A stretch of 64,000 nucleotides of DNA from a virus (IMGVR_UViG_3300032086_003797:1-64000); one strand, 5' to 3'; counted from the stretch's first letter, positions 121 to 57,500 are shown. Notes: generated by a model not told the origin, from the letters alone. Made by a program: numbers and translations.

Positions 121-576
121 ATGAAAATACTAATCAGTTCTTGTGTGTATGGAGATGATGTAAGGTGGAACGGCACCAACCGTCGTGAAGATGACATCAA
201 AACCTGGGCAGAAAACAACGGCTTTGAATTAGTTCCAGTGTGTCCAGAGAACGAATTGTTCGGTACACCCAGAAAGGCCATCCGCTTGCGAGCAGTTGAC
301 GGCGAGATAAAAGGCTTTGCGGGCAAAAATGAAGTCTACGGACAACTAAAAGATAAATGCCAAGAAATCTCCGAAAGACACAAAGATGCAGTTGGGTTCA
401 TAGGAATCTCCAACTCTCCTTCTTGCGGTTTATCTACGGGTGTAAAAGACTTAGGTTCAACAATTAAAGCGCCAATGCACCAAAGCCTTGACTGCCCAAC
501 CACAGAAATCAGTTCTATGCGGAATGAAAAGAACAGGGAAGTGTTTCTTCGGAGAATCCAGTCCTACTTAAGATGA
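121..576 (+). CDS. DUF523 / TudS-like thiouracil desulfidase ([4Fe-4S])
   Basis: ILISSC..G..VRWNG, VCPE..LFGTPR and SPSCG motifs; three conserved Cys. Confidence 0.8.
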   Translation: MKILISSCVYGDDVRWNGTNRREDDIKTWAENNGFELVPVCPENELFGTPRKAIRLRAVDGEIKGFAGKNEVYGQLKDKCQEISERHKDAVGFIGISNSPSCGLSTGVKDLGSTIKAPMHQSLDCPTTEISSMRNEKNREVFLRRIQSYLR

Positions 577-2643: not shown

Positions 2644-2853
2644 ATGAAATATAAAGTAAAGCCAGGTGATTTAGTGCAGAGCAACATTTTCAACAAGAAG
2701 GGTTCTGGTTCATATGGACTTGTTATGGGTCCATACGGAATCCCAGGATACTGGAGTGTAAAGTGGTGTGATAGTGATTGGGAGCTTAGTGAACAAATAG
2801 TGGGAATCTATGAAGTTCACGAAAAAGACATCGTAGTGGTGTCTAGAGCATGA
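2644..2853 (+). CDS. Small GDLV-family (SH3/KOW-like) protein
   Basis: KPGDLV...GLV...VKW...DIVVV pattern. Confidence 0.65.
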   Translation: MKYKVKPGDLVQSNIFNKKGSGSYGLVMGPYGIPGYWSVKWCDSDWELSEQIVGIYEVHEKDIVVVSRA

Positions 2854-3059
2854 GAGATGGAGATCTGGTCAGATATAGAATATGTACTTGGCATGTTGAG
2901 CCTAAAAAATATACTGACTGGCAGATGGGTCTTCTCTTGAAATATGATAAGCTAATGAAGATTGCAGAAATAATAAGCCCTAATGGTGACCTAGTACGAG
3001 TTCGAGCCGCCGACGTTCAGCTTGTTCAGCGATCAAAAACAAAAAAGAAATTTACTTGA
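2850..3059 (+). CDS. Small GDLV-family protein
   Basis: MRDGDLV start; ATGA overlap with the previous gene. Confidence 0.65.
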   Translation: MRDGDLVRYRICTWHVEPKKYTDWQMGLLLKYDKLMKIAEIISPNGDLVRVRAADVQLVQRSKTKKKFT

Positions 3060-3096
3060 CATACAGCTTATCCGTGCTATTATAAATTGTAAGGAG
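3056..3096 (+). promoter_or_regulatory. Sigma70-like early promoter, copy 1 of a repeated element
   Basis: TTGACA-16-TATTAT with extended -10 TG, followed by AAATTGTAAGGAG. Confidence 0.75.
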
Positions 3097-3103
3097 ATAA
3101 GTT

Positions 3104-3355
3104 GTGTTGTCAGACATGCTTCGTAAAAAAATCAAACTGGTAGGTAAGTCACGTCACGGTAAAAACCGTGTTCGTGAGCAAGGCGCTCTGTGGCGTGTTG
3201 TTGGCGAATCTTTGAAGGTACACTTCAAGTCAAGCGCCCCAGGACCATTCCTTCTGCTTGAGTCGGAAGAGAATGAGGGACCACATGGTTTCCATGCTCG
3301 TTGGGTTAGCCTTCGAGATGACCCTGACTTTTCAGTAGAGGTTATTGGTGAATAA
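3104..3355 (+). CDS. Small hypothetical protein
   Basis: ORF after the promoter and AAGGAG RBS; exact start uncertain. Confidence 0.6.
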   Translation: MLSDMLRKKIKLVGKSRHGKNRVREQGALWRVVGESLKVHFKSSAPGPFLLLESEENEGPHGFHARWVSLRDDPDFSVEVIGE

Positions 3356-3557
3356 GAACGAGTGGCGTAAAAGCCTAAAGGCTGGCGACCTCGTGATGAT
3401 GAAGTCTGGGGGGATGGCTCTCCTTACAGAGGTGTTCTTTCGGTTTCCCGAGACGGACCCAGCCTATCCCCATATCAAGATGATCTATTGTGATGACAAC
3501 TCATTAGGCAGTTGCAGTGCATGGAGAGTAAAGGAGTTAGTCAATGCAGGTCGGTGA
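3345..3557 (+). CDS. Small GDLV-family protein
   Basis: LKAGDLVMMKSGG; ends ELVNAGR. Confidence 0.65.
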   Translation: MVNKNEWRKSLKAGDLVMMKSGGMALLTEVFFRFPETDPAYPHIKMIYCDDNSLGSCSAWRVKELVNAGR

Positions 3558-3708
3558 TTTAGTAAAACACAGGTTCACTAGAGAATTACATCTCGTAGTT
3601 GAGGTAAGGAAAATCAAAGGAAAGGTGGGATATGTTCACTTGTCCGATCATAATCCTCAACAAGTCTTCTACCCAAGCGATTTGGAGGTGCTCAGTGAAG
3701 CCAGGTGA
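3544..3708 (+). CDS. Small GDLV-family protein (54 aa, not in ORF track)
   Basis: Translated by hand: MQVGDLVKHRF...LEVLSEAR; AGGAG RBS. Confidence 0.7.
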   Translation: MQVGDLVKHRFTRELHLVVEVRKIKGKVGYVHLSDHNPQQVFYPSDLEVLSEAR

Positions 3709-3898
3709 TTTGGTTCAGCCTGATTTCCAATCAGAGGTTGTGGCAAAGTGGGGCTCAGCGCCCGACCAGCTTGGGTTGGTTTTGTCATATCCTGAAGTCA
3801 AGAACCACGGAACAACTTGTGTAAAGGTTAGCTGGCTCGGTTGGGATTTAGAAGAATACTATTCTGTTCATCATTTAGTGATGGTCAATGAATCCTAA
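3695..3898 (+). CDS. Small GDLV-family protein
   Basis: GTG start MKPGDLV after GGAGG. Confidence 0.7.
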   Translation: MKPGDLVQPDFQSEVVAKWGSAPDQLGLVLSYPEVKNHGTTCVKVSWLGWDLEEYYSVHHLVMVNES

Positions 3899-4103
3899 GT
3901 TTTGGTTTAATCTTGGCGACCTCGTATCATTTACATCTCGCCGCTTAACCGAGGATTATATTGATGATCATGTCCTGACTGGCATTGTAATCGCCCAGCG
4001 TTTTATGTTTACTGCCGATAATAAGTTCTTAGTTAAAACTCCAGAAAAAGATTACTGGGTTTCGAGACCTGCCCTAACTTTAATTTCCAGAGCAAATAAA
4101 TAA
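3888..4103 (+). CDS. Small GDLV-family protein
   Basis: FNLGDLV...GIVI. Confidence 0.65.
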   Translation: MNPKFWFNLGDLVSFTSRRLTEDYIDDHVLTGIVIAQRFMFTADNKFLVKTPEKDYWVSRPALTLISRANK

Positions 4104-4112
4104 TATATTTTA

Positions 4113-4153
4113 TTGACAAACACTCTATCCATGGTATTATAAATTGTAAGGAG
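4113..4153 (+). promoter_or_regulatory. Sigma70-like early promoter, copy 2
   Basis: TTGACA-16-TATTAT, TG extension, same AAATTGTAAGGAG leader as the copy at 3056. Confidence 0.75.
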
Positions 4154-4156
4154 AGA

Positions 4157-4351
4157 GTGATGAGTGGTGATTTCAATATGTTTCATGGTGAGCGTGTCAA
4201 ATACAAAGGGCAACACCCGCTTTTGCAAGACCAAAAAGGTAAAGTTGTTGGCGGCGATATGCACGAGTTCGTTATCAAATGGGATAACTTGGAAGTTCCA
4301 AGAGCACACAGCCCGTACAATATTGTGTGGCTAGTGGATAGTGGGGAATGA
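4157..4351 (+). CDS. Small SH3-like protein
   Basis: GERVKY..GKVV..VIKW. Confidence 0.6.
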   Translation: MMSGDFNMFHGERVKYKGQHPLLQDQKGKVVGGDMHEFVIKWDNLEVPRAHSPYNIVWLVDSGE

Positions 4352-4533
4352 TGATATCATCAGCGGGTCACGGCGTTGGCGCTCTAGTCAACTTTGAGTT
4401 CAAGATGAGCAAAGAGTTGGGTATGATTGTGCGTCAAAGCAAAGGATACTATTGGATGGTCAAGCGTCTCAGTGACGGTCAGAACCTACTAATCCTTGAG
4501 CGAGACATGGAGGTGGTCAGTGAAGCAAGGTGA
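4348..4533 (+). CDS. Small GDLV-like protein
   Basis: VGALV...GMIV...MEVVSEAR. Confidence 0.6.
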   Translation: MMISSAGHGVGALVNFEFKMSKELGMIVRQSKGYYWMVKRLSDGQNLLILERDMEVVSEAR

Positions 4534-4699
4534 TTTGGTAAAATATGACCACCCTTCCAACCCCATGCTCGGGCTGGTCAAGTCTGTGAAGCCCGACCGC
4601 ACATGGGGTAAAATTAGTGTGCTTGTCCAGTGGTGTAATAATAGCAACACTGAAGAATGTGTTTGGCAAGAAGATTTGAAAGTGGTGAGTGGTCAATGA
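4520..4699 (+). CDS. Small GDLV-family protein
   Basis: GTG start MKQGDLV after GGAGG. Confidence 0.7.
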   Translation: MKQGDLVKYDHPSNPMLGLVKSVKPDRTWGKISVLVQWCNNSNTEECVWQEDLKVVSGQ

Positions 4700-4854
4700 A
4701 AGAAGGTGATCTGGTTCGGCACCTTGAGGATAACCAACTGGGCGTTGTTGTTCTCGCTTGGGGTGTTATGGATGTTGTAGAGGTGCTCTGGGACGACGGG
4801 GAAACCAGGGGTCAGAACACCTGCGAGTTGGAGTTACTCAATGAAGCCAGGTGA
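4696..4854 (+). CDS. Small GDLV-family protein
   Basis: MKEGDLVRH...VEVLWDDG...LELLNEAR. Confidence 0.7.
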   Translation: MKEGDLVRHLEDNQLGVVVLAWGVMDVVEVLWDDGETRGQNTCELELLNEAR

Positions 4855-5002
4855 TTTGGTAAAACGACAACAAGGCTGGATGGGCTGGGAGAAACAGCAA
4901 CTTGGAGTTGTAGTCTGGGTAGACCGAGCAGTTGTCAAGGTTCTGTGGTCTGACGACTATGGTAGTTTTGCTCATCCTATTACCTCACTGGAAGTGATTT
5001 AA
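4841..5002 (+). CDS. Small GDLV-family protein (53 aa, not in ORF track)
   Basis: MKPGDLVKR...GVVV...VKVLWSD...LEVI. Confidence 0.7.
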   Translation: MKPGDLVKRQQGWMGWEKQQLGVVVWVDRAVVKVLWSDDYGSFAHPITSLEVI

Positions 5003-5178
5003 TGAAGGTCGGAACACTAGTTCAGTTCACAGCCTACAATGTAAGTCTGGGCATTGGCATTGTCCTTCGCCACGATGACGAAAAGCCAGATTATATGTGG
5101 GTCTCAAATGAAAAGTTGGGTCCCCAGTTCGTACCCAAGAATTGTACGATGTTGGAGGTGTTGAATGAAGCCAGGTGA
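5002..5178 (+). CDS. Small GDLV-like protein (58 aa, not in ORF track)
   Basis: MKVGTLVQF...GIV...LEVLNEAR; TAATG coupling. Confidence 0.7.
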   Translation: MKVGTLVQFTAYNVSLGIGIVLRHDDEKPDYMWVSNEKLGPQFVPKNCTMLEVLNEAR

Positions 5179-5362
5179 TTTAGTTCGGATCAGGAAGTCA
5201 GCGATCACTGCTTGGTCCACGCTATGGTTCATTGATCTTGCTGAACGCAAAGCGCCACTGCTTGTAATGGAAGAACTTAATAAGAGCCACTGGAAAGTAA
5301 TGAGACCCAATGGAACTACTTTCTTTGTTGAAGAACAAAACCTAACTAAGAGGATGTGGTAA
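5165..5362 (+). CDS. Small GDLV-family protein
   Basis: MKPGDLVRI after GGAGG. Confidence 0.7.
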   Translation: MKPGDLVRIRKSAITAWSTLWFIDLAERKAPLLVMEELNKSHWKVMRPNGTTFFVEEQNLTKRMW

Positions 5363-5559
5363 TGGAGCCGACTTATGTTAATTACAGAGTAGGTGATCTG
5401 GTAGTTAATCCTACAAGTGGAGTTATTGGCGTGATTACAAGTCATAATTATTGGGCGGAGGATGAATATCTTGGCACCGAAGAAGAAGTTGTTGACGTCA
5501 TGTTTGGCGGACACATCTCAAAACAATATCCAGTAAGATATATTAATAAAGTACGATGA
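5362..5559 (+). CDS. Small GDLV-family protein
   Basis: YRVGDLV...GVI; TAATG coupling. Confidence 0.65.
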   Translation: MEPTYVNYRVGDLVVNPTSGVIGVITSHNYWAEDEYLGTEEEVVDVMFGGHISKQYPVRYINKVR

Positions 5560-5792
5560 AAAAAGAAACCTACAATACTCGACTGAAAACAAACCCCGAG
5601 AACATTCCTATCGGTAGTTTGCTTCGGGTCAAAAAACATTGTCGGAATAATGTTACTATTCGCCAGAATGGCGAGTATGGTCTTTTGGCACCAAGCATTA
5701 ATGGGAAGTATATTACACATGATGTTGTATTTCCCAATGGAACCCGATGTATTTTTATGCCCTTGAACTGGGAGGTGATTAGTTATGCATAG
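5556..5792 (+). CDS. Small SH3-like protein
   Basis: IGSLLRV...WEVIS; ATGA overlap. Confidence 0.6.
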   Translation: MKKETYNTRLKTNPENIPIGSLLRVKKHCRNNVTIRQNGEYGLLAPSINGKYITHDVVFPNGTRCIFMPLNWEVISYA

Positions 5793-6009
5793 GATAGAAA
5801 AAATACAGCAGCCTGGAACCCTTTTGCGATCCCGTTGGGGCAGCAACTATGGTAAGTTAGCCTTAGTCCTTGCTGAATCTTACGCTGGTCCGAGACCAAG
5901 TAATGGATACCCACCTCGCCGCTGGGTGAAAATGCAGTGGTGCTCAACTGGCGAAGTGTTTGAAGAATCGTTAGTAAATGTGAATAATTGTTGGCGTATT
6001 GTAGAATAG
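5785..6009 (+). CDS. Small SH3-like protein
   Basis: PGTLL...VKMQW; GGAGG RBS. Confidence 0.6.
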   Translation: MHRIEKIQQPGTLLRSRWGSNYGKLALVLAESYAGPRPSNGYPPRRWVKMQWCSTGEVFEESLVNVNNCWRIVE

Positions 6010-6039
6010 TGTGTTATACTATTAGTGTGAGGAGGTTCT

Positions 6040-6243
6040 ATGGCGATCATGCCAAAGTTCAAGCCAGGTCAGTTAGTAGAGTATTATGTCAACGATGACT
6101 GTACTATGATGGGTCTAGTCAAGACCACTCGTGCAGCACCACGCCGTGGCACGCCAGCGTTTGTTCTGGTCGAGTGGTGTGGCGATCATGATCAAAAAGA
6201 AGAATATGTTCCACAGTCAAAACTAAGATTGGTAGAAGACTAA
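6040..6243 (+). CDS. Small GDLV-like protein
   Basis: FKPGQLV...GLV...VLVEW...LRLV; extended -10 (TGtTATACT at 6012-6020) and GGAGG upstream. Confidence 0.65.
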   Translation: MAIMPKFKPGQLVEYYVNDDCTMMGLVKTTRAAPRRGTPAFVLVEWCGDHDQKEEYVPQSKLRLVED

Positions 6244-6755
6244 TGAATATTTTTGCTATCGAAGGCGATGAAGAGACAGGACAGATTGACTGGGAGAAGT
6301 CAGCACAGTCGCAGGACAACTTGCGTGTGGTCAAGATGATCCTAGAGTCTTGTCAGATTATGTCCACCGTTATCAACGAGCAGGGTCTCAAGGCTCCTTA
6401 CCGCTCATTCAATCCCAAGCACCCGTCGTGCCTGTGGGCTGCGGAGTCAGCAAGTAACTATATGAATCTTGCTTTACACTGCCAGGCAATGATCGACGAG
6501 TACGAGCATCGGTTCAACAAGACTCACAAGTGTCAAGCAATTCTTCAGACACTTATCGAAATGTTTGACCCAGGGTTGTTCCCCACTACGGAGTGTACCC
6601 CGCTCCGCCTGGCAATGCCTGACGAGTTTCGATCCGACAATCCTGTCGTGTCTTACCGCAAGTTCTATGCTTCCAAGCCACGCTTACGATACCCAGCAGA
6701 CAAGATTCCATCTTGGGTATATGAATACCGCACAGAACCATTCGAGGTAGTCTAA
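6243..6755 (+). CDS. Pyrimidine-dimer DNA glycosylase / endonuclease V-like protein
   Basis: MNIF...VVKMILESCQIMST...KHPSCLWA...AMPDEF...YRKFY. Confidence 0.7.
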   Translation: MNIFAIEGDEETGQIDWEKSAQSQDNLRVVKMILESCQIMSTVINEQGLKAPYRSFNPKHPSCLWAAESASNYMNLALHCQAMIDEYEHRFNKTHKCQAILQTLIEMFDPGLFPTTECTPLRLAMPDEFRSDNPVVSYRKFYASKPRLRYPADKIPSWVYEYRTEPFEVV

Positions 6756-8058: not shown

Positions 8059-8625
8059 ATGGCTGCTGAAAATTTAGAAATACTAAGAGGTTTGGCACAA
8101 GCTGCCGCTGATTCATATGATGGAGCCCTAGACGAGGATGGTAATCCAATTGAGATGGGTCTCAAAAGAGAAGACAAAGATCAATACAAGAAACATACAT
8201 CTGATGGCTTCGGCGTTCGCTTCGCCCACAATAAAGTTATTATCTCTTATCACAGTGAGATGATGCTCAAAGAGGTACACCCTAGAGCACAGTTTCAAAA
8301 TGAAATAGAGCAACGTCTTGGAGATATTGTCAAGCGCCTTAAGAAGCGTTATCGTGAGATCACTAAGAATACCGTGTCACTGACAGCAGAGGGCGAAACT
8401 GATATTGATGTCCAGAATCTATCACGTCAACGAACTTTCGTTGTAGCTAAAAAGGTCTACAAGATTGGATCGATTAAAGAAACTAACTCTGTCAACGCAG
8501 AAGAAAATGAATATTCAGGGAAGAGCGTTGAGGATAACATCAAGACCTTCATGGATCAATTTAAAAACCCCAAGAAGGCTGAAAACAATAAGGCACCCGC
8601 TAATCCAGATACGCCGAGTGCATAA
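8059..8625 (+). CDS. Hypothetical protein
   Basis: AGGAG RBS; coupled to the terminase gene. Confidence 0.6.
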   Translation: MAAENLEILRGLAQAAADSYDGALDEDGNPIEMGLKREDKDQYKKHTSDGFGVRFAHNKVIISYHSEMMLKEVHPRAQFQNEIEQRLGDIVKRLKKRYREITKNTVSLTAEGETDIDVQNLSRQRTFVVAKKVYKIGSIKETNSVNAEENEYSGKSVEDNIKTFMDQFKNPKKAENNKAPANPDTPSA

Positions 8626-10196
8626 TGTCTCTCACCAAAAGTGAGGTAATGAAGGAAGTCATACGGTGTGGTAAAGACCCCGTATACTTCCTTTGCAATT
8701 ATGCCAAGATAACCGAGCCCATGAGGGGCTTGATACCCTTCGACTTATACCCATTTCAGAAGGATACTATTAAAGAGTTCCAAGAAAACCGCTTTAATAT
8801 TATTCTAAAAGCACGACAGTTGGGGTTATCTACATCTGTGGCAGGCTATGTCTGTTGGCTAATATTGTTTCACAGAAGCAAGAATGTTTTGGTTGTAGCA
8901 ACTAAATTGCAGAGTGCAACCAACTTGGTAAAAAAGATAAAACAAATACACAGGAACTTACCAGACTGGCTAAAGATCGCAGATATATCTATCAATAACA
9001 GAACATCGTTTGAATTGTCCAATGCATCACAAGTTAAGGCATCCTCGACTTCAGGTGATGCAGGTCGTTCTGAAGCATTGTCTTTGTTGGTGGTTGATGA
9101 AGCCGCCCACGTTGAGGGACTAGAAGAACTGTGGGCTGGCTTATATCCTACTCTATCAACTGGTGGTGCAGCCATCACTTTATCCACGCCTAACGGTGTT
9201 GGGAACTGGTTTCATAAAACATATATGGAAGCTGTCGAGGGCAAGAATGATTTCAACTTTATTAATCTTCCGTGGTCAACACACCCAGATAGAGACATGC
9301 AGTGGTTTGAAAAAGAAACCAGGAACATGTCTCCGAGAGAAATTGCGCAAGAGCTTGAGTGTAGCTTTAACGCCTCAGGCGAAACAGTCGTTTCTGGACC
9401 TTCGTTAGAGGAGATGTTTAACAAGTGTAGTGACCCATTACACAGGGCTGGCTTTGATAGGAACTACTGGATTTGGGAAGAACCACTTGATGGAGAAGAA
9501 TACCTATGTGTGGGCGACGTGGCTCGTGGCGATGGTAAAGATTACAGTACAGTTCAAGTTATAAAAACTAGCGACATGCAGCAGGTAGCAGAATACCAAG
9601 GTAAACTTACTGGGGATATGTTTGCGCCCTTGATAACCGAAATCGCAAACGAATACAATAAGGCTCTTTTGGTCATTGAGAACAACAAGGATTATGGTGT
9701 GCTTTCAAGGATCGAAGATCTAGAATACGATAACATTTACTATTCACTAAAATCAACTCACGACTATGTGGATCAGCTTACAGCGCAAGCGAATAGCGGT
9801 ATAGCAGGGTTTACAATGTCAATGAAGACTCGACCATTGGTAGTATCAAAGCTGGAAGAATTTGTAAGAAATAATATACTTACTATTAACTCCGTTAGGA
9901 CAGCCTCAGAGCTAAAGACATTTATTTGGCATAATGGTAAAGCACAAGCAATGCGTGGCTATAATGATGATTTGGTAATGGCATTAGCGATTGGTTGTTG
10001 GGTTAGGGATGTTGCGATGGCTGTAAACAAAAGGGATATAGAGTATAACAGAGCGATGCTATCAGGTATTAGTACTGCAAACAGGCAAATTAGTACTGCT
10101 ATCCCAGGAATGACTAATTATAAACAAAGAGTAAAATCTACACAAACTACCAATAATGGTATAAAATATGATATTGGCTGGATATATAAAGGATAG
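8625..10196 (+). CDS. Terminase large subunit (T4 gp17-like)
   Basis: KARQLGLST Walker A, VVDEAAH Walker B, STPNG, DVARGDGKDYS, DDLVMA nuclease motifs. Confidence 0.95.
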   Translation: MSLTKSEVMKEVIRCGKDPVYFLCNYAKITEPMRGLIPFDLYPFQKDTIKEFQENRFNIILKARQLGLSTSVAGYVCWLILFHRSKNVLVVATKLQSATNLVKKIKQIHRNLPDWLKIADISINNRTSFELSNASQVKASSTSGDAGRSEALSLLVVDEAAHVEGLEELWAGLYPTLSTGGAAITLSTPNGVGNWFHKTYMEAVEGKNDFNFINLPWSTHPDRDMQWFEKETRNMSPREIAQELECSFNASGETVVSGPSLEEMFNKCSDPLHRAGFDRNYWIWEEPLDGEEYLCVGDVARGDGKDYSTVQVIKTSDMQQVAEYQGKLTGDMFAPLITEIANEYNKALLVIENNKDYGVLSRIEDLEYDNIYYSLKSTHDYVDQLTAQANSGIAGFTMSMKTRPLVVSKLEEFVRNNILTINSVRTASELKTFIWHNGKAQAMRGYNDDLVMALAIGCWVRDVAMAVNKRDIEYNRAMLSGISTANRQISTAIPGMTNYKQRVKSTQTTNNGIKYDIGWIYKG

Positions 10197-38193: not shown

Positions 38194-39294
38194 ATGATGG
38201 CAAAAACTAATGCACTTGTAAGTGACTTGAGGAACTCCCTCAACAAGCAAGCAAAACACACAATCGCTTATGACTTGCACGGTGAAAACCCTACAGAAGT
38301 CAAGACTTGGATCTCAACTGGCTCTACTGTGTTGGACCTAGTGATTTCAAACCGACAAGATGGCGGTATCCCTGTAGGGAAAATCACCACTATTGCAGGT
38401 GAGTCACAAAGTGGCAAGAGTTTGATCGCTACGCATATCTTGGCTAACACACAGAAGAAAGGCGGGATTGCTATCTATATTGATACTGAGAACGCCAGCG
38501 ACCCTGGGTGGATGGTTAATCTAGGACTCAGCACTGATGAAGATTTCTTGTACTTGCAAACGCAAACCCTGGAGGATACCTTCCAAGCAATCGAGAATGT
38601 TATTGCCAATGTAAGGCAGAAAGCACCAGATCGTTTGGTGTGTATCGTTTGGGATAGCGTTGCGGCAACCCCAGCACGGGCAGAGGTCGAAGGTAGTTAT
38701 GATCCTAACTCACAGATCGGCGTGTCGGCACGAGTTATCGCTCGTGGTCTACGCAAGATCACAGAGATGATTGGGCAACAAAAGATCGCTCTTGTACTAA
38801 CTAACCAACTCAAAACAAACATTGGTCAGATGTTTGGAGACACAAGAGTTGAGCCAGGCGGCAAGGGACTACCTTATCAGGCTTCTGCCCGTGTATGGTT
38901 GACACGGCACACAGGTAAAGCCAATGGGGTTATTACTAACGACCAGGGTCAGCTTATTGGCTACAGGACCTCAGCCCAGATTGTGAAGAATCGCTTCGGA
39001 CCACCTAACAGGACTTGTGAGTTCGATGTGTTATTCGACCTGGCAAATAACAAGGTTGGCGTCGATGATGAAGGTTCGTGGCTTAAGGTTATTGCAGGGT
39101 CAGATAACTGCCCCAGAGCAGGCGCATGGTATACTCTAAAATATGATGACGGGGAAGAAAAGAAGTTTCAAAAAGCAGACTATCCTCGTCTGATTCAAAA
39201 TGAGAAATTTCGCAGTAGAGTCCTTGACATTCTACACAATGAGCTTATTATAGGATATGATCAAAGTGTAGATGGCGATGTGTCGGCAGAATAA
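38194..39294 (+). CDS. RecA/UvsX recombinase
   Basis: STGS..LD, GESQSGKS, YIDTENA, WDSVA, TNQ, PGG, KNRFGPP. Confidence 0.93.
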   Translation: MMAKTNALVSDLRNSLNKQAKHTIAYDLHGENPTEVKTWISTGSTVLDLVISNRQDGGIPVGKITTIAGESQSGKSLIATHILANTQKKGGIAIYIDTENASDPGWMVNLGLSTDEDFLYLQTQTLEDTFQAIENVIANVRQKAPDRLVCIVWDSVAATPARAEVEGSYDPNSQIGVSARVIARGLRKITEMIGQQKIALVLTNQLKTNIGQMFGDTRVEPGGKGLPYQASARVWLTRHTGKANGVITNDQGQLIGYRTSAQIVKNRFGPPNRTCEFDVLFDLANNKVGVDDEGSWLKVIAGSDNCPRAGAWYTLKYDDGEEKKFQKADYPRLIQNEKFRSRVLDILHNELIIGYDQSVDGDVSAE

Positions 39295-56185: not shown

Positions 56186-56464
56186 GTGGATAAGAAACAA
56201 AAGAAAAGCCTCAAGCGCAAGGCTAAGAATAAAAAGCAGAAGCAAGCGTCTGAGGAAGCCCAACGGCGGATGCAGAAGCAGATTAATTTGTTTGACAAAC
56301 TACCAAAAACATGTTCTACTTGTAGTATGGAATTCCCAAAGACAAGAGAAGCACACATGAGTTGGAAAGTAGTAGTTAGAGCTAAGAACGAGATGGTTAG
56401 GTTATTCTGCCCAGCCTGTCAAAACAAAGTCACTGAACTTGTAGGAGAACAAAGTGAAGTTTAA
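56186..56464 (+). CDS. Basic Zn-ribbon protein
   Basis: CSTC...CPAC; TTTACA-16-TATCCT promoter-like element at 56140-56167. Confidence 0.55.
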   Translation: MDKKQKKSLKRKAKNKKQKQASEEAQRRMQKQINLFDKLPKTCSTCSMEFPKTREAHMSWKVVVRAKNEMVRLFCPACQNKVTELVGEQSEV

Positions 56465-57500
56465 AGAAGCAGTCACTTATGATGATATGCTTTTGGTGCC
56501 GCAGTACAGCGATATCGAAAGTAGGAGCGAGGTAGACATTACAAACTACCTTGGGCACAGAGAGTTTACTTTACCTATCATTGCTTCACCGATGGACACC
56601 GTGTCTGAAACAGAGATGGCAGTCACCATGATTAACGCTGGCGGGCTTGCTGTACTCCACCGTTACAACTCTATCACAGAGCAACAAGCTATGGCAGTCG
56701 AAGTAGACAAGGCTACTAACTTGGTTGAGAAAAAGCTCGCCGCTGCTATCGGCGTGACGGGTGATTACCTAGAGCGTACCGAGGCGCTTATCAGTGCTGG
56801 TGTTGATATCCTCTGTGTGGATGTTGCCCATGGACATCATGCCTTGATGAAGAAAGCACTTACGACTTTGCGGCAAGAATATGGAAATAATATTTATATT
56901 ATGGCAGGCAACGTCTGCACGTTAGAAGGTATCAACGATCTTGCTGATTGGGGTGCCAACGCAGTGCGCTGTAATATTGGTGGCGGCTCCATTTGTAGCA
57001 CTCGTATAGTCACGGGTCATGGATTGCCAGGCTTGCAAACAATCTTTGATTGTGCTAAAACAGACAGAGATGTTGCAATCATCGCAGATGGCGGAATCAA
57101 AACCTCTGGAGATATTGTCAAAGCCCTAGCCGCAGGAGCCGACTTTGTGATGTGTGGGTCTCTTCTGGCAGGCACAACTGAGAGTCCTGGCAGGGTGATC
57201 AGTCTACCCGATAATAGCAGGGTCAAAGAATATCGAGGCATGGCCTCTAAAGATGCACAAATGAACTGGCGCAACAAGTCTTCTACCCCAGAGGGCGTTG
57301 CCTCATATATTCCATTTAAGGGCAGTGCTATTGATATCTTGAGGGATCTTGATGGCGGTATTCGCAGTGGATTATCTTACACTGGTGCTCGTAGTATTGA
57401 CGAGCTACAACATAAAGTAGAGTGGGCCCGACAAACCTCAGCAGGCTTGATCGAGAGTGGTACACATATCCTAACAACCCAAAGCGGTCGGAGAAAATAA
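56454..57500 (+). CDS. IMP dehydrogenase / GMP reductase family (no CBS domains)
   Basis: [39 protein letters not shown]. Confidence 0.9.

Follow-up and report, generated by a model that had tools for sequence, protein, structure and literature searches.

The first 64,000 nucleotides (nt) of the viral contig IMGVR_UViG_3300032086_003797, referred to here as the window, carry an array of 18 small genes at 2644-6243, several of which are joined by one short repeated junction that is coding on both sides. The source genome is a single contig of 174,625 bp, estimated to be 95% complete, and the window is its start. The large terminase gene (TerL, 8625-10196) is of the T4-like type and matches T4-like phages. 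Its nearest cultured relatives, at ~42% identity, are Microcystis phage Mel-JY01 and Flavobacterium phages, and the metagenomic relatives are drawn from marine data sets, Tara Oceans among them. The source genome is an uncultured marine T4-like phage. An earlier reading of the DNA made without database searches (the sequence-only reading) had described 18 small open reading frames (ORFs) of 52-83 amino acids (aa) in this region. All 18 were found, all on the plus strand, and they tile the whole region. The genes (g1-g18) and two promoter-leader modules (P1 and P2) are listed below; the E-values, from profile hidden Markov models (HMM), and the hhalign probabilities refer to the KOW-like family discussed after the list.

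2644-2853, plus strand: g1, 69 aa, KOW-like family, internal KPGDLV; leave-one-out HMM E-value 9.5e-8, hhalign probability 56%
2850-3059, plus strand: g2, 69 aa, family member, MRDGDLV
3037-3097, plus strand: promoter-leader module P1, a 61-nt repeat, AT-rich, with TTGACA-16-TGcTATTAT and AAATTGTAAGGAGA
3104-3355, plus strand: g3, 83 aa, first gene after P1, outside the family (hhalign 0.1-0.2%)
3345-3557, plus strand: g4, 70 aa, family member
3544-3708, plus strand: g5, 54 aa, family member (hhalign 97%)
3695-3898, plus strand: g6, 67 aa, GTG start, family member (hhalign 98%)
3888-4103, plus strand: g7, 71 aa, weak family member (hhalign 76%, E-value 2e-5)
4094-4154, plus strand: promoter-leader module P2, a 61-nt repeat 80% identical to 3037-3097
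4157-4351, plus strand: g8, 64 aa, first gene after P2, outside the family by sequence (hhalign 0.2-0.3%)
4348-4533, plus strand: g9, 61 aa, family member; junction GTGAAGCAAGGTGAT, VKQGDLV
4520-4699, plus strand: g10, 59 aa, GTG start, the mobile cassette
4696-4854, plus strand: g11, 52 aa, family member
4841-5002, plus strand: g12, 53 aa, family member with a structural model
5002-5178, plus strand: g13, 58 aa, family member (hhalign 97%)
5165-5362, plus strand: g14, 65 aa, family N-terminus only (hhalign aligns 11 N-terminal columns); opens the block g14-g18
5356-5559, plus strand: g15, 67 aa, weak family member (hhalign 58%)
5556-5792, plus strand: g16, 78 aa, family member (hhalign 96%)
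5785-6009, plus strand: g17, 74 aa, family member; allele swapped among natural variants
6040-6243, plus strand: g18, 67 aa, family member (hhalign 98%), closest paralogue of g10

Neighboring genes are tightly packed, with overlaps of 1-14 nt at 15 of the 17 internal junctions. Two genes, g6 and g10, begin at GTG codons inside longer ORFs (3695 and 4520). The overlap is exactly 14 nt at five junctions: g4/g5, g5/g6, g9/g10, g11/g12, and g13/g14. At these five, a single stretch encodes the upstream tail L-E-V-x-[SN]-E-A-R-stop, a GGAGG Shine-Dalgarno sequence, an ATG or GTG start, and the downstream N-terminus M-K-P-G-D-L-V, as the sequence-only reading had pointed out. The upstream TGA stop falls inside the downstream GGT GAT (Gly-Asp) codons. 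The copies of the repeat are as follows.

3532-3563, plus strand: diverged junction copy at g4/g5, 22/32 matches
3683-3714, plus strand: junction repeat copy at g5/g6
4508-4539, plus strand: junction repeat copy at g9/g10, 30/32 matches; left arm of the g10 deletion in the relative L001
4684-4715, plus strand: diverged junction copy at g10/g11, 22/32 matches; right arm of the same deletion
4829-4860, plus strand: junction repeat copy at g11/g12, 29/32 matches
5153-5184, plus strand: junction repeat copy at g13/g14, 28/32 matches

The four closest copies (3683, 4508, 4829, and 5153) are pairwise identical at 27-30 of 32 positions, compared with 8.2 ± 2.5 matches (maximum 21) for random 32-mer pairs from the array. 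They had been called near-identical, which is slightly generous, though fair. The diverged copy noted earlier at 3532 is present, and a second of the same kind lies at 4684. No further copies with at least 23 matches were found in the whole 174.6-kb genome on either strand. No RNA structure is predicted for the junction, which is if anything less structured than shuffled sequences (z +0.7 and +1.5).

The motif K.GDLV...W...LEVV, which had been proposed as common to most of the genes, is real. The consensus is MxKxGDLV...LGxV...VxVxW...L, with one Gly that is invariant across 47 family sequences, and mean column identity among the paralogues is 20%. A leave-one-out HMM finds 13 of the 18 genes. 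Leave-group-out hhalign, a profile-profile comparison of orthologue alignments, links 16, with probabilities above 90% for ten genes, 46-76% for six (g1, g2, g4, g7, g9, and g15), and below 1% for g3 and g8. As judged by these profiles, 16 of the 18 genes belong to one family. The other two, g3 and g8, each the first gene after a promoter, appear unrelated; both were considered as family members and rejected (probability 0.1-0.3%). An AlphaFold2 (AF2) model of g3 made from three orthologues had a predicted local distance difference test score (pLDDT) of 47, was unusable, and was discarded.

The AF2 model of g12 (pLDDT 91.5) is a five-strand barrel. Its best match among solved structures is Spt5 KOW2-3 (Z 8.9, root-mean-square deviation 1.3 Å over 50 of 53 residues), ahead of the NusG KOW domain (Z 7.6-7.7) and then NdhS, R67 DHFR, and Tudor domains. 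Searched against PDB sequences, the family profile weakly matches Spt5 KOW (E-value 2.5e-4) and uL24 (E-value 1e-3). According to its model, g12 is a small KOW/SH3-type barrel. The SH3/KOW-like fold that had been suggested for the array is upheld for g12 by its model, and the family profile takes in 16 of the 18 genes, with g3 and g8 falling outside it. A Pfam scan of the 18 proteins gave no match at an E-value of 0.01 or below (the best was KOWx_SPT5, E-value 0.077), a PHROGs scan of the same proteins gave nothing at useful E-values, and the region had no megablast match among GenBank phages. When 1.84 billion representatives were searched, 395 clusters (counted at 50% identity) were returned at E-values of 0.001 or below, nearly all of them nameless stand-alone proteins of 50-70 aa. 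A protein atlas search gave one cluster with a name, R67-DHFR (0.91), which we take as fold-level resemblance only; the other clusters were viral and unnamed. Outside the window, at 86217-92784 of the genome, at least six further small genes have GDLV- or GSLV-type N-termini and match the family profile weakly to moderately (E-values 4e-6 to 0.02). These are scattered among other small ORFs and do not have the 14-nt junction repeat.

Contigs covering the locus were gathered by TerL-anchored searches and identity look-ups, and 13 of them were compared for gene order. Relatives whose TerL is 63-68% identical have only g1-like and g2-like genes (1-2 copies) between the flanking genes, and those at 81-95% have 10-18 members at the locus. 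The low copy number in the distant relatives points to the array being a recent, lineage-specific expansion. The g2-like gene is present at the 63-68% level, and g2 appears to be the ancestral copy. Within the compared contigs g1 is confined to arrangement types A and B; distant phages carry a relative of it at 42-58%, and the ratio of non-synonymous to synonymous substitution rates (dN/dS) for g1 against L001 is 0.03.

Many different orders were found among the 13 contigs. The block g14-g15-g16-g17-g18 is constant, and g4 to g13 are re-assorted. The number of distinct right neighbors is eight for g12 (in 11 contigs), four for g9 (in 4), and four for g11 (in 6). Other right neighbors are fixed: g14 is followed by g15 in 7/8 contigs, g15 by g16, g16 by g17, and g17 by g18 in 7/7 each, g3 by g4 in 5/5, and n4 by g9 in 3/3. 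Variation is found at the 14-nt junctions and the promoter modules, and the fixed joints use other overlaps. Units larger than one gene also travel, namely g3-g4, g8/n4-g9, g6-g7, and the block g14-g18. In types C and F, X57 (group n2) stands in the place of g3.

All of the relatives are metagenomic contigs, and repeats can mislead assemblers, so the gene orders might be assembly artefacts. However, the identical stretches are at most about 20 nt. The k-mers usually used in assembly are longer than this. The same arrangements also recur in independent samples (type B in L001, L055, and L057; type C in L003 and L114; type D in L006, L067, L066, and L005), the orders of types A, B, C, and D were obtained again from separate samples and sources (JGI, ENA, and Tara), and the differences in order come with sequence divergence. 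One sample, 3300029319, contains two arrangement types (L003 and L123). We consider an assembly artefact very improbable. Two contigs have genes of ~300 aa inserted in the array (L124:3965-4924, 319 aa, and L130:2247-3158, 303 aa), flanked by unusually long non-coding gaps. A search of the two inserts for homing-endonuclease domains gave no Pfam match in L124 and only a zinc knuckle in L130. These inserts may be mobile genes.

The positions of the new joints can be read from individual contigs. In L001, L055, and L057, g10 is missing between g9 and g11. The L001 joint consists of the window g9/g10 junction (GTGAAGCAAGGTGATTTGGT) joined to the g11 body (TCGGCACC); it is identical to the g9/g10 junction through GATTTGGT and then continues as g11, which elsewhere begins [AG]TGAA[AG]GA[AG]GGTGAT[CT]TGGT. 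In sequence, this is the expected product of a crossover between the flanking junction copies, within their last few shared bases. The g10 body, 80.5% identical, is found after g18 in the same three contigs (with a g18-like N-terminus in L001) and after g11 in L131. Three bodies occur downstream of the g9 junction (VKQGDLV): g10 in the window, g11 in L001, and n14 in L131. Likewise, the g4 junction reads M[QR][VA]GDLV whatever body comes next (g5, Y55/n17, or g12). The g12 body occurs with five N-terminal tripeptides before GDLV (MKP, MQA, MRV, VRV, and VKV), set by the upstream gene. Its database orthologues are mostly 57 aa, with tails derived from the junction, and these C-terminal tails (NEAR, SEAR, NERG, NERR, SESR, and others) are an out-of-frame reading of the next gene. 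For g4|g12 and g11|g6, the crossover can be narrowed to 15-20 identical bases inside the junction. Over all cases, this window is 4-20 identical bases long and lies in the junction, and the new joints are seamless. The exact 14-nt phase is kept in 30/30 junctions of the 14-nt type, which join no fewer than 14 different pairs of genes, and none of them shows a scar, a spacer, or a partial duplication. The sequence-only reading had predicted cassette gain, loss, and reordering with breakpoints in the junction. Deletion, translocation, re-ordering, and swaps were all seen, with joints inside the junction, which supports the idea of cassette shuffling; the unit is not always a single gene as had been supposed.

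Such joints could also be explained if the junction is a by-product of conserved termini and overlap, with random illegitimate recombination and selection that keeps the events falling at gene boundaries (Hendrix-type mosaicism). The codons argue in this direction. Where GDLV is internal, in g4 and g7, it is written GGC GAC CTC, and GGT GAT is required only where the TGA stop comes from it. The upstream gene u151 is unrelated, yet in L003 and L006 it too ends in the GGTGA of g2. Because even this gene ends so, the 14-nt overlap and the "EAR" tail are passive outcomes of GGTGAT supplying the stop. A by-product is, however, harder to reconcile with one phase in all 30 junctions and their many scarless pairings. 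Chimeric junctions put the crossovers inside identical bases, and within the variable part of the array, pairs that sit on other junctions (g3-g4, n4-g9, and g8-g9) remain together. We therefore regard the by-product explanation as unlikely.

The two promoter-leader modules provide another kind of joint. Each has an AT-rich tract, TTGACA-16-TGnTATTAT, and the same fixed leader, and ends just before g3 or g8. Both match 11/12 promoter positions and have an extended -10 (TG). The genome has ~10 copies of the module, most of them at 66-93 kb, where a second region of small genes lies. In the form TTGACA-N14-TGGTATTAT-AAATTGTAAGGGAGA it occurs, always on the plus strand, at 66545, 77649, 82974, 84180, 91755, and 92545, as well as at 3056 and 4113. 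From its sequence the module is probably the phage's early promoter class, driven by the host sigma-70, and the two sigma-70-type promoters suggest that the array is expressed early. A stem-loop was sought in P1 and P2, which fold no better than shuffles (z -0.67 and -0.78). The gene after P2 varies among relatives (g8, n1, n3, n4, or n5) and differs in 4/4 contigs that carry g7. At the g7/P2 border, identity to L001 jumps from 55% to 97-100%. The promoter modules are a second class of variable joint, as variable as the 14-nt junctions. The 30-nt gap between g17 and g18 (5991-6039) is the sole sizeable gap within the conserved block, and a TGTTATACT...GTGAGGAGG motif is kept there in all arrangement types. 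Possibly the motif is an internal promoter that belongs to another class.

Identity between the window and L001 changes by steps at gene boundaries: 55% in g7, 94-100% in P2/g8, 86% in g14, 58% in g15, 93% in g16, and 71% in g17. L059 and L061 are 100% identical to the window except for g17, which is the L001-type allele. The breakpoints of this swap are at 5785-5790 and about 6039-6046, at the starts of g17 and g18. Synonymous divergence (dS) ranges from 0.13 in g13 to saturated in g7, g15, and g17, compared with 1.3 in TerL. Thus, some cassettes have been exchanged recently and others have been replaced by distant alleles. Values of dN/dS among the array orthologues are 0.0-0.35, and these are therefore real genes under purifying selection.

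The high divergence of the paralogues and their cassette-like behavior would also be in keeping with a dedicated diversification system, either mutagenesis by a reverse transcriptase as in diversity-generating retroelements or cassette capture by an integron-like integrase. However, searches of the 95%-complete genome gave no match to reverse transcriptase (PF00078) and none to tyrosine integrase (PF00589). The low dN/dS is a further point against such a system, and the junction has no attC-like predicted structure. Both readings were rejected. Because the genome has neither enzyme and each cassette is under purifying selection, assortment and replacement, rather than hypermutation, are the source of the diversity.

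The analysis establishes the anatomy, the family, and the g12 fold, as well as the expansion, the purifying selection, where the joints lie, and the re-arrangements. The best explanation of the whole is an expanded KOW/SH3 array that is re-assorted at in-phase coding junctions. We give this a probability of about 0.65. The region is probably a hyperplastic, early-transcribed part of a marine T4-like phage genome. The array would have arisen when a gene for a KOW/SH3-type beta-barrel protein of ~55-70 aa underwent tandem expansion in this lineage. The paralogues keep two conserved ends. The last strand, L-E-V, written TTGGAGGTG, doubles as the Shine-Dalgarno sequence of the next gene, and the first strand, M-K-x-G-D-L-V, contains GGTGAT, whose TGA serves as the stop of the previous gene. 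Any two abutting members form the same overlapping junction of 30-35 nt, by which their translation would be coupled. Since every copy has the same phase, both frames, the ribosome site, and the stop would survive a crossover, and crossovers between any two copies could delete, duplicate, insert, or re-order whole cassettes. Both conserved blocks, LEV/SD and GDLV, are possible sites of the crossover. A RecA/UvsX-like recombinase is among the phage's own genes (38194-39294, PF00154, E-value 4.7e-46). The promoter-leader modules would serve as joints of a second kind. Related phages that occur together would then exchange cassettes, which are thereby assorted and replaced.

Several observations weigh against re-assortment at the junctions. 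The nucleotide identity of the repeat is largely accounted for by dual coding and preferred codons (CCA 0.49, GGT 0.39, and GAT 0.65). Conservation of the right neighbor, as the share of other contigs, is 0.32 at 14-nt junctions and 0.61 at other tight junctions (Mann-Whitney p = 0.005). This difference speaks for the junctions, but the association comes from phylogenetically non-independent contigs and is indicative only; it is also partly confounded, since the 14-nt type is concentrated among recent paralogues. The sharp mosaic steps lie at non-repeat junctions as well (g14/15, g15/16, g16/17, and g7/P2). The repeat is therefore not needed for every exchange, as the by-product explanation would have it. 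Homology of 4-20 nt is short for UvsX-type recombination, and some events may be microhomology-mediated. Pooled over the N-terminal 18 nt, identity is 0.67 with the downstream gene and 0.52 with the upstream gene (background 0.36). This statistic is ambiguous, and the statement that the junction always moves with the upstream gene was dropped; the individual chimeric cases were kept. Finally, a confident model is available for one member only, g12. With these points included, we still find it quite probable that junction homology causes the events rather than merely surviving them. A stronger form of re-assortment at the junctions would make the junction a self-perpetuating in-phase coding "linker" by which KOW-fold mini-genes are freely exchangeable among co-infecting marine T4-like phages, possibly via excised one-junction circles akin to the mini-circles of promoter early stem-loop (PeSL) elements, each phage having its own assortment of host-directed binders. 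This form is possible, although we hold it to be doubtful.

KOW domains bind proteins and nucleic acids. The array proteins would be small binders of host or phage macromolecules. The most likely reading, held with low confidence, is that they bind nucleic acid or the transcription/translation machinery, because of the KOW fold and the precedent of MotB in T4. This early protein binds DNA, and a KOW domain is predicted at its N-terminus (PMC7827196). Like the array proteins, it is KOW-like and encoded in an early "non-essential" region of a T4-type phage; it differs in being single-copy and in having two domains (KOW and OB).

The surroundings of the array also vary. In types A, B, C, and F, the array is directly followed (window 6243-6755) by a gene for a DenV-like pyrimidine-dimer glycosylase (Pyr_excise, phrog_624). 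Its place is occupied in types D and E by UvdE, an unrelated ultraviolet (UV) endonuclease (E-value 2.9e-55; L006:4044-4976 and L031:2734-3666). This is a non-orthologous swap of UV-repair enzymes. Upstream, 573-2618 encodes a 681-aa lipoprotein-like protein with a MopE-type metal-binding motif and propeller-like repeats, found only in types A and B, together with g1. In L003 and L006 a 2-thiouracil-desulfurase-like gene (window 121-576) directly adjoins g2. Since the 681-aa protein is limited to types A and B and the upstream gene abuts g2 elsewhere, it looks like inserted, bacterial-type DNA. In a group of related phages (L123, L124, and L131) the entire array and the DenV-like gene are placed between a dUTPase gene and an IMPDH-like gene, not upstream of the terminase. 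The homologues of these two neighbors lie here at 77 kb (dUTPase) and at window 56454-57497 (IMPDH-like).

It has long been asked whether phage mosaicism arises by homology-guided exchange at short boundaries or by random joining followed by selection. The array is a natural test bed for this question, as it offers one phase-locked repeated junction, at least 12 natural arrangements in public metagenomes, and adjacent junctions of other types as internal controls. It also defines an unannotated family of stand-alone KOW-fold mini-proteins (the 395 clusters at 50% identity), amplified to ~16 copies in one lineage. Amplification on this scale suggests a role in infection that is driven by dosage or specificity. 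With NusG/Spt5, the uL24 KOW domain, NdhS, PsaE, and R67 DHFR these proteins share, as modelled for g12, the five-strand barrel and the Gly-containing first strand (structural Z 7.3-8.9). Unlike NusG, Spt5, and uL24, they are stand-alone proteins of 52-78 aa with no NGN or other domain.

Of the mechanisms described, the closest is the modular shuffling of hyperplastic regions in T4-type phages, which PeSL elements mediate (Arbiol et al., 2010, PMC2839356; Comeau et al., 2014, PMC4122927). In both cases a T4-like phage has dense, small, non-essential genes with a short repeat at the gene boundaries, deletions, insertions, and replacements among close relatives map to the repeat, and recombination between copies has been proposed (PMC2839356, PMC4122927). 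P1 and P2 resemble the promoter half of a PeSL, having the AT-rich tract, the sigma-70 promoter, and the Shine-Dalgarno sequence, but have no predicted stem-loop. The main repeat differs more clearly: it is coding on both sides and ~32 nt long, whereas PeSLs are intergenic promoter-terminator units of ~100 bp. The shuffled genes here are paralogues of one family, whereas PeSL genes are unrelated ORFans. With this array, the PeSL idea is no longer limited to promoter-terminator units and also takes in a coding junction through which translational coupling is kept. An older parallel is the modular theory of Susskind and Botstein, and the boundary sequences of Clark et al. in 2001, in which conserved "linker" sequences are said to have been proposed for module exchange in lambdoid phages; the evidence has reportedly stayed disputed. 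As here, short conserved boundary sequences would guide homologous exchange and keep the genes intact. Those phages are temperate and their modules unrelated, whereas in this array the linker lies within a set of paralogues and overlaps two reading frames. The coding junction is new in the kind of sequence involved, not in principle.

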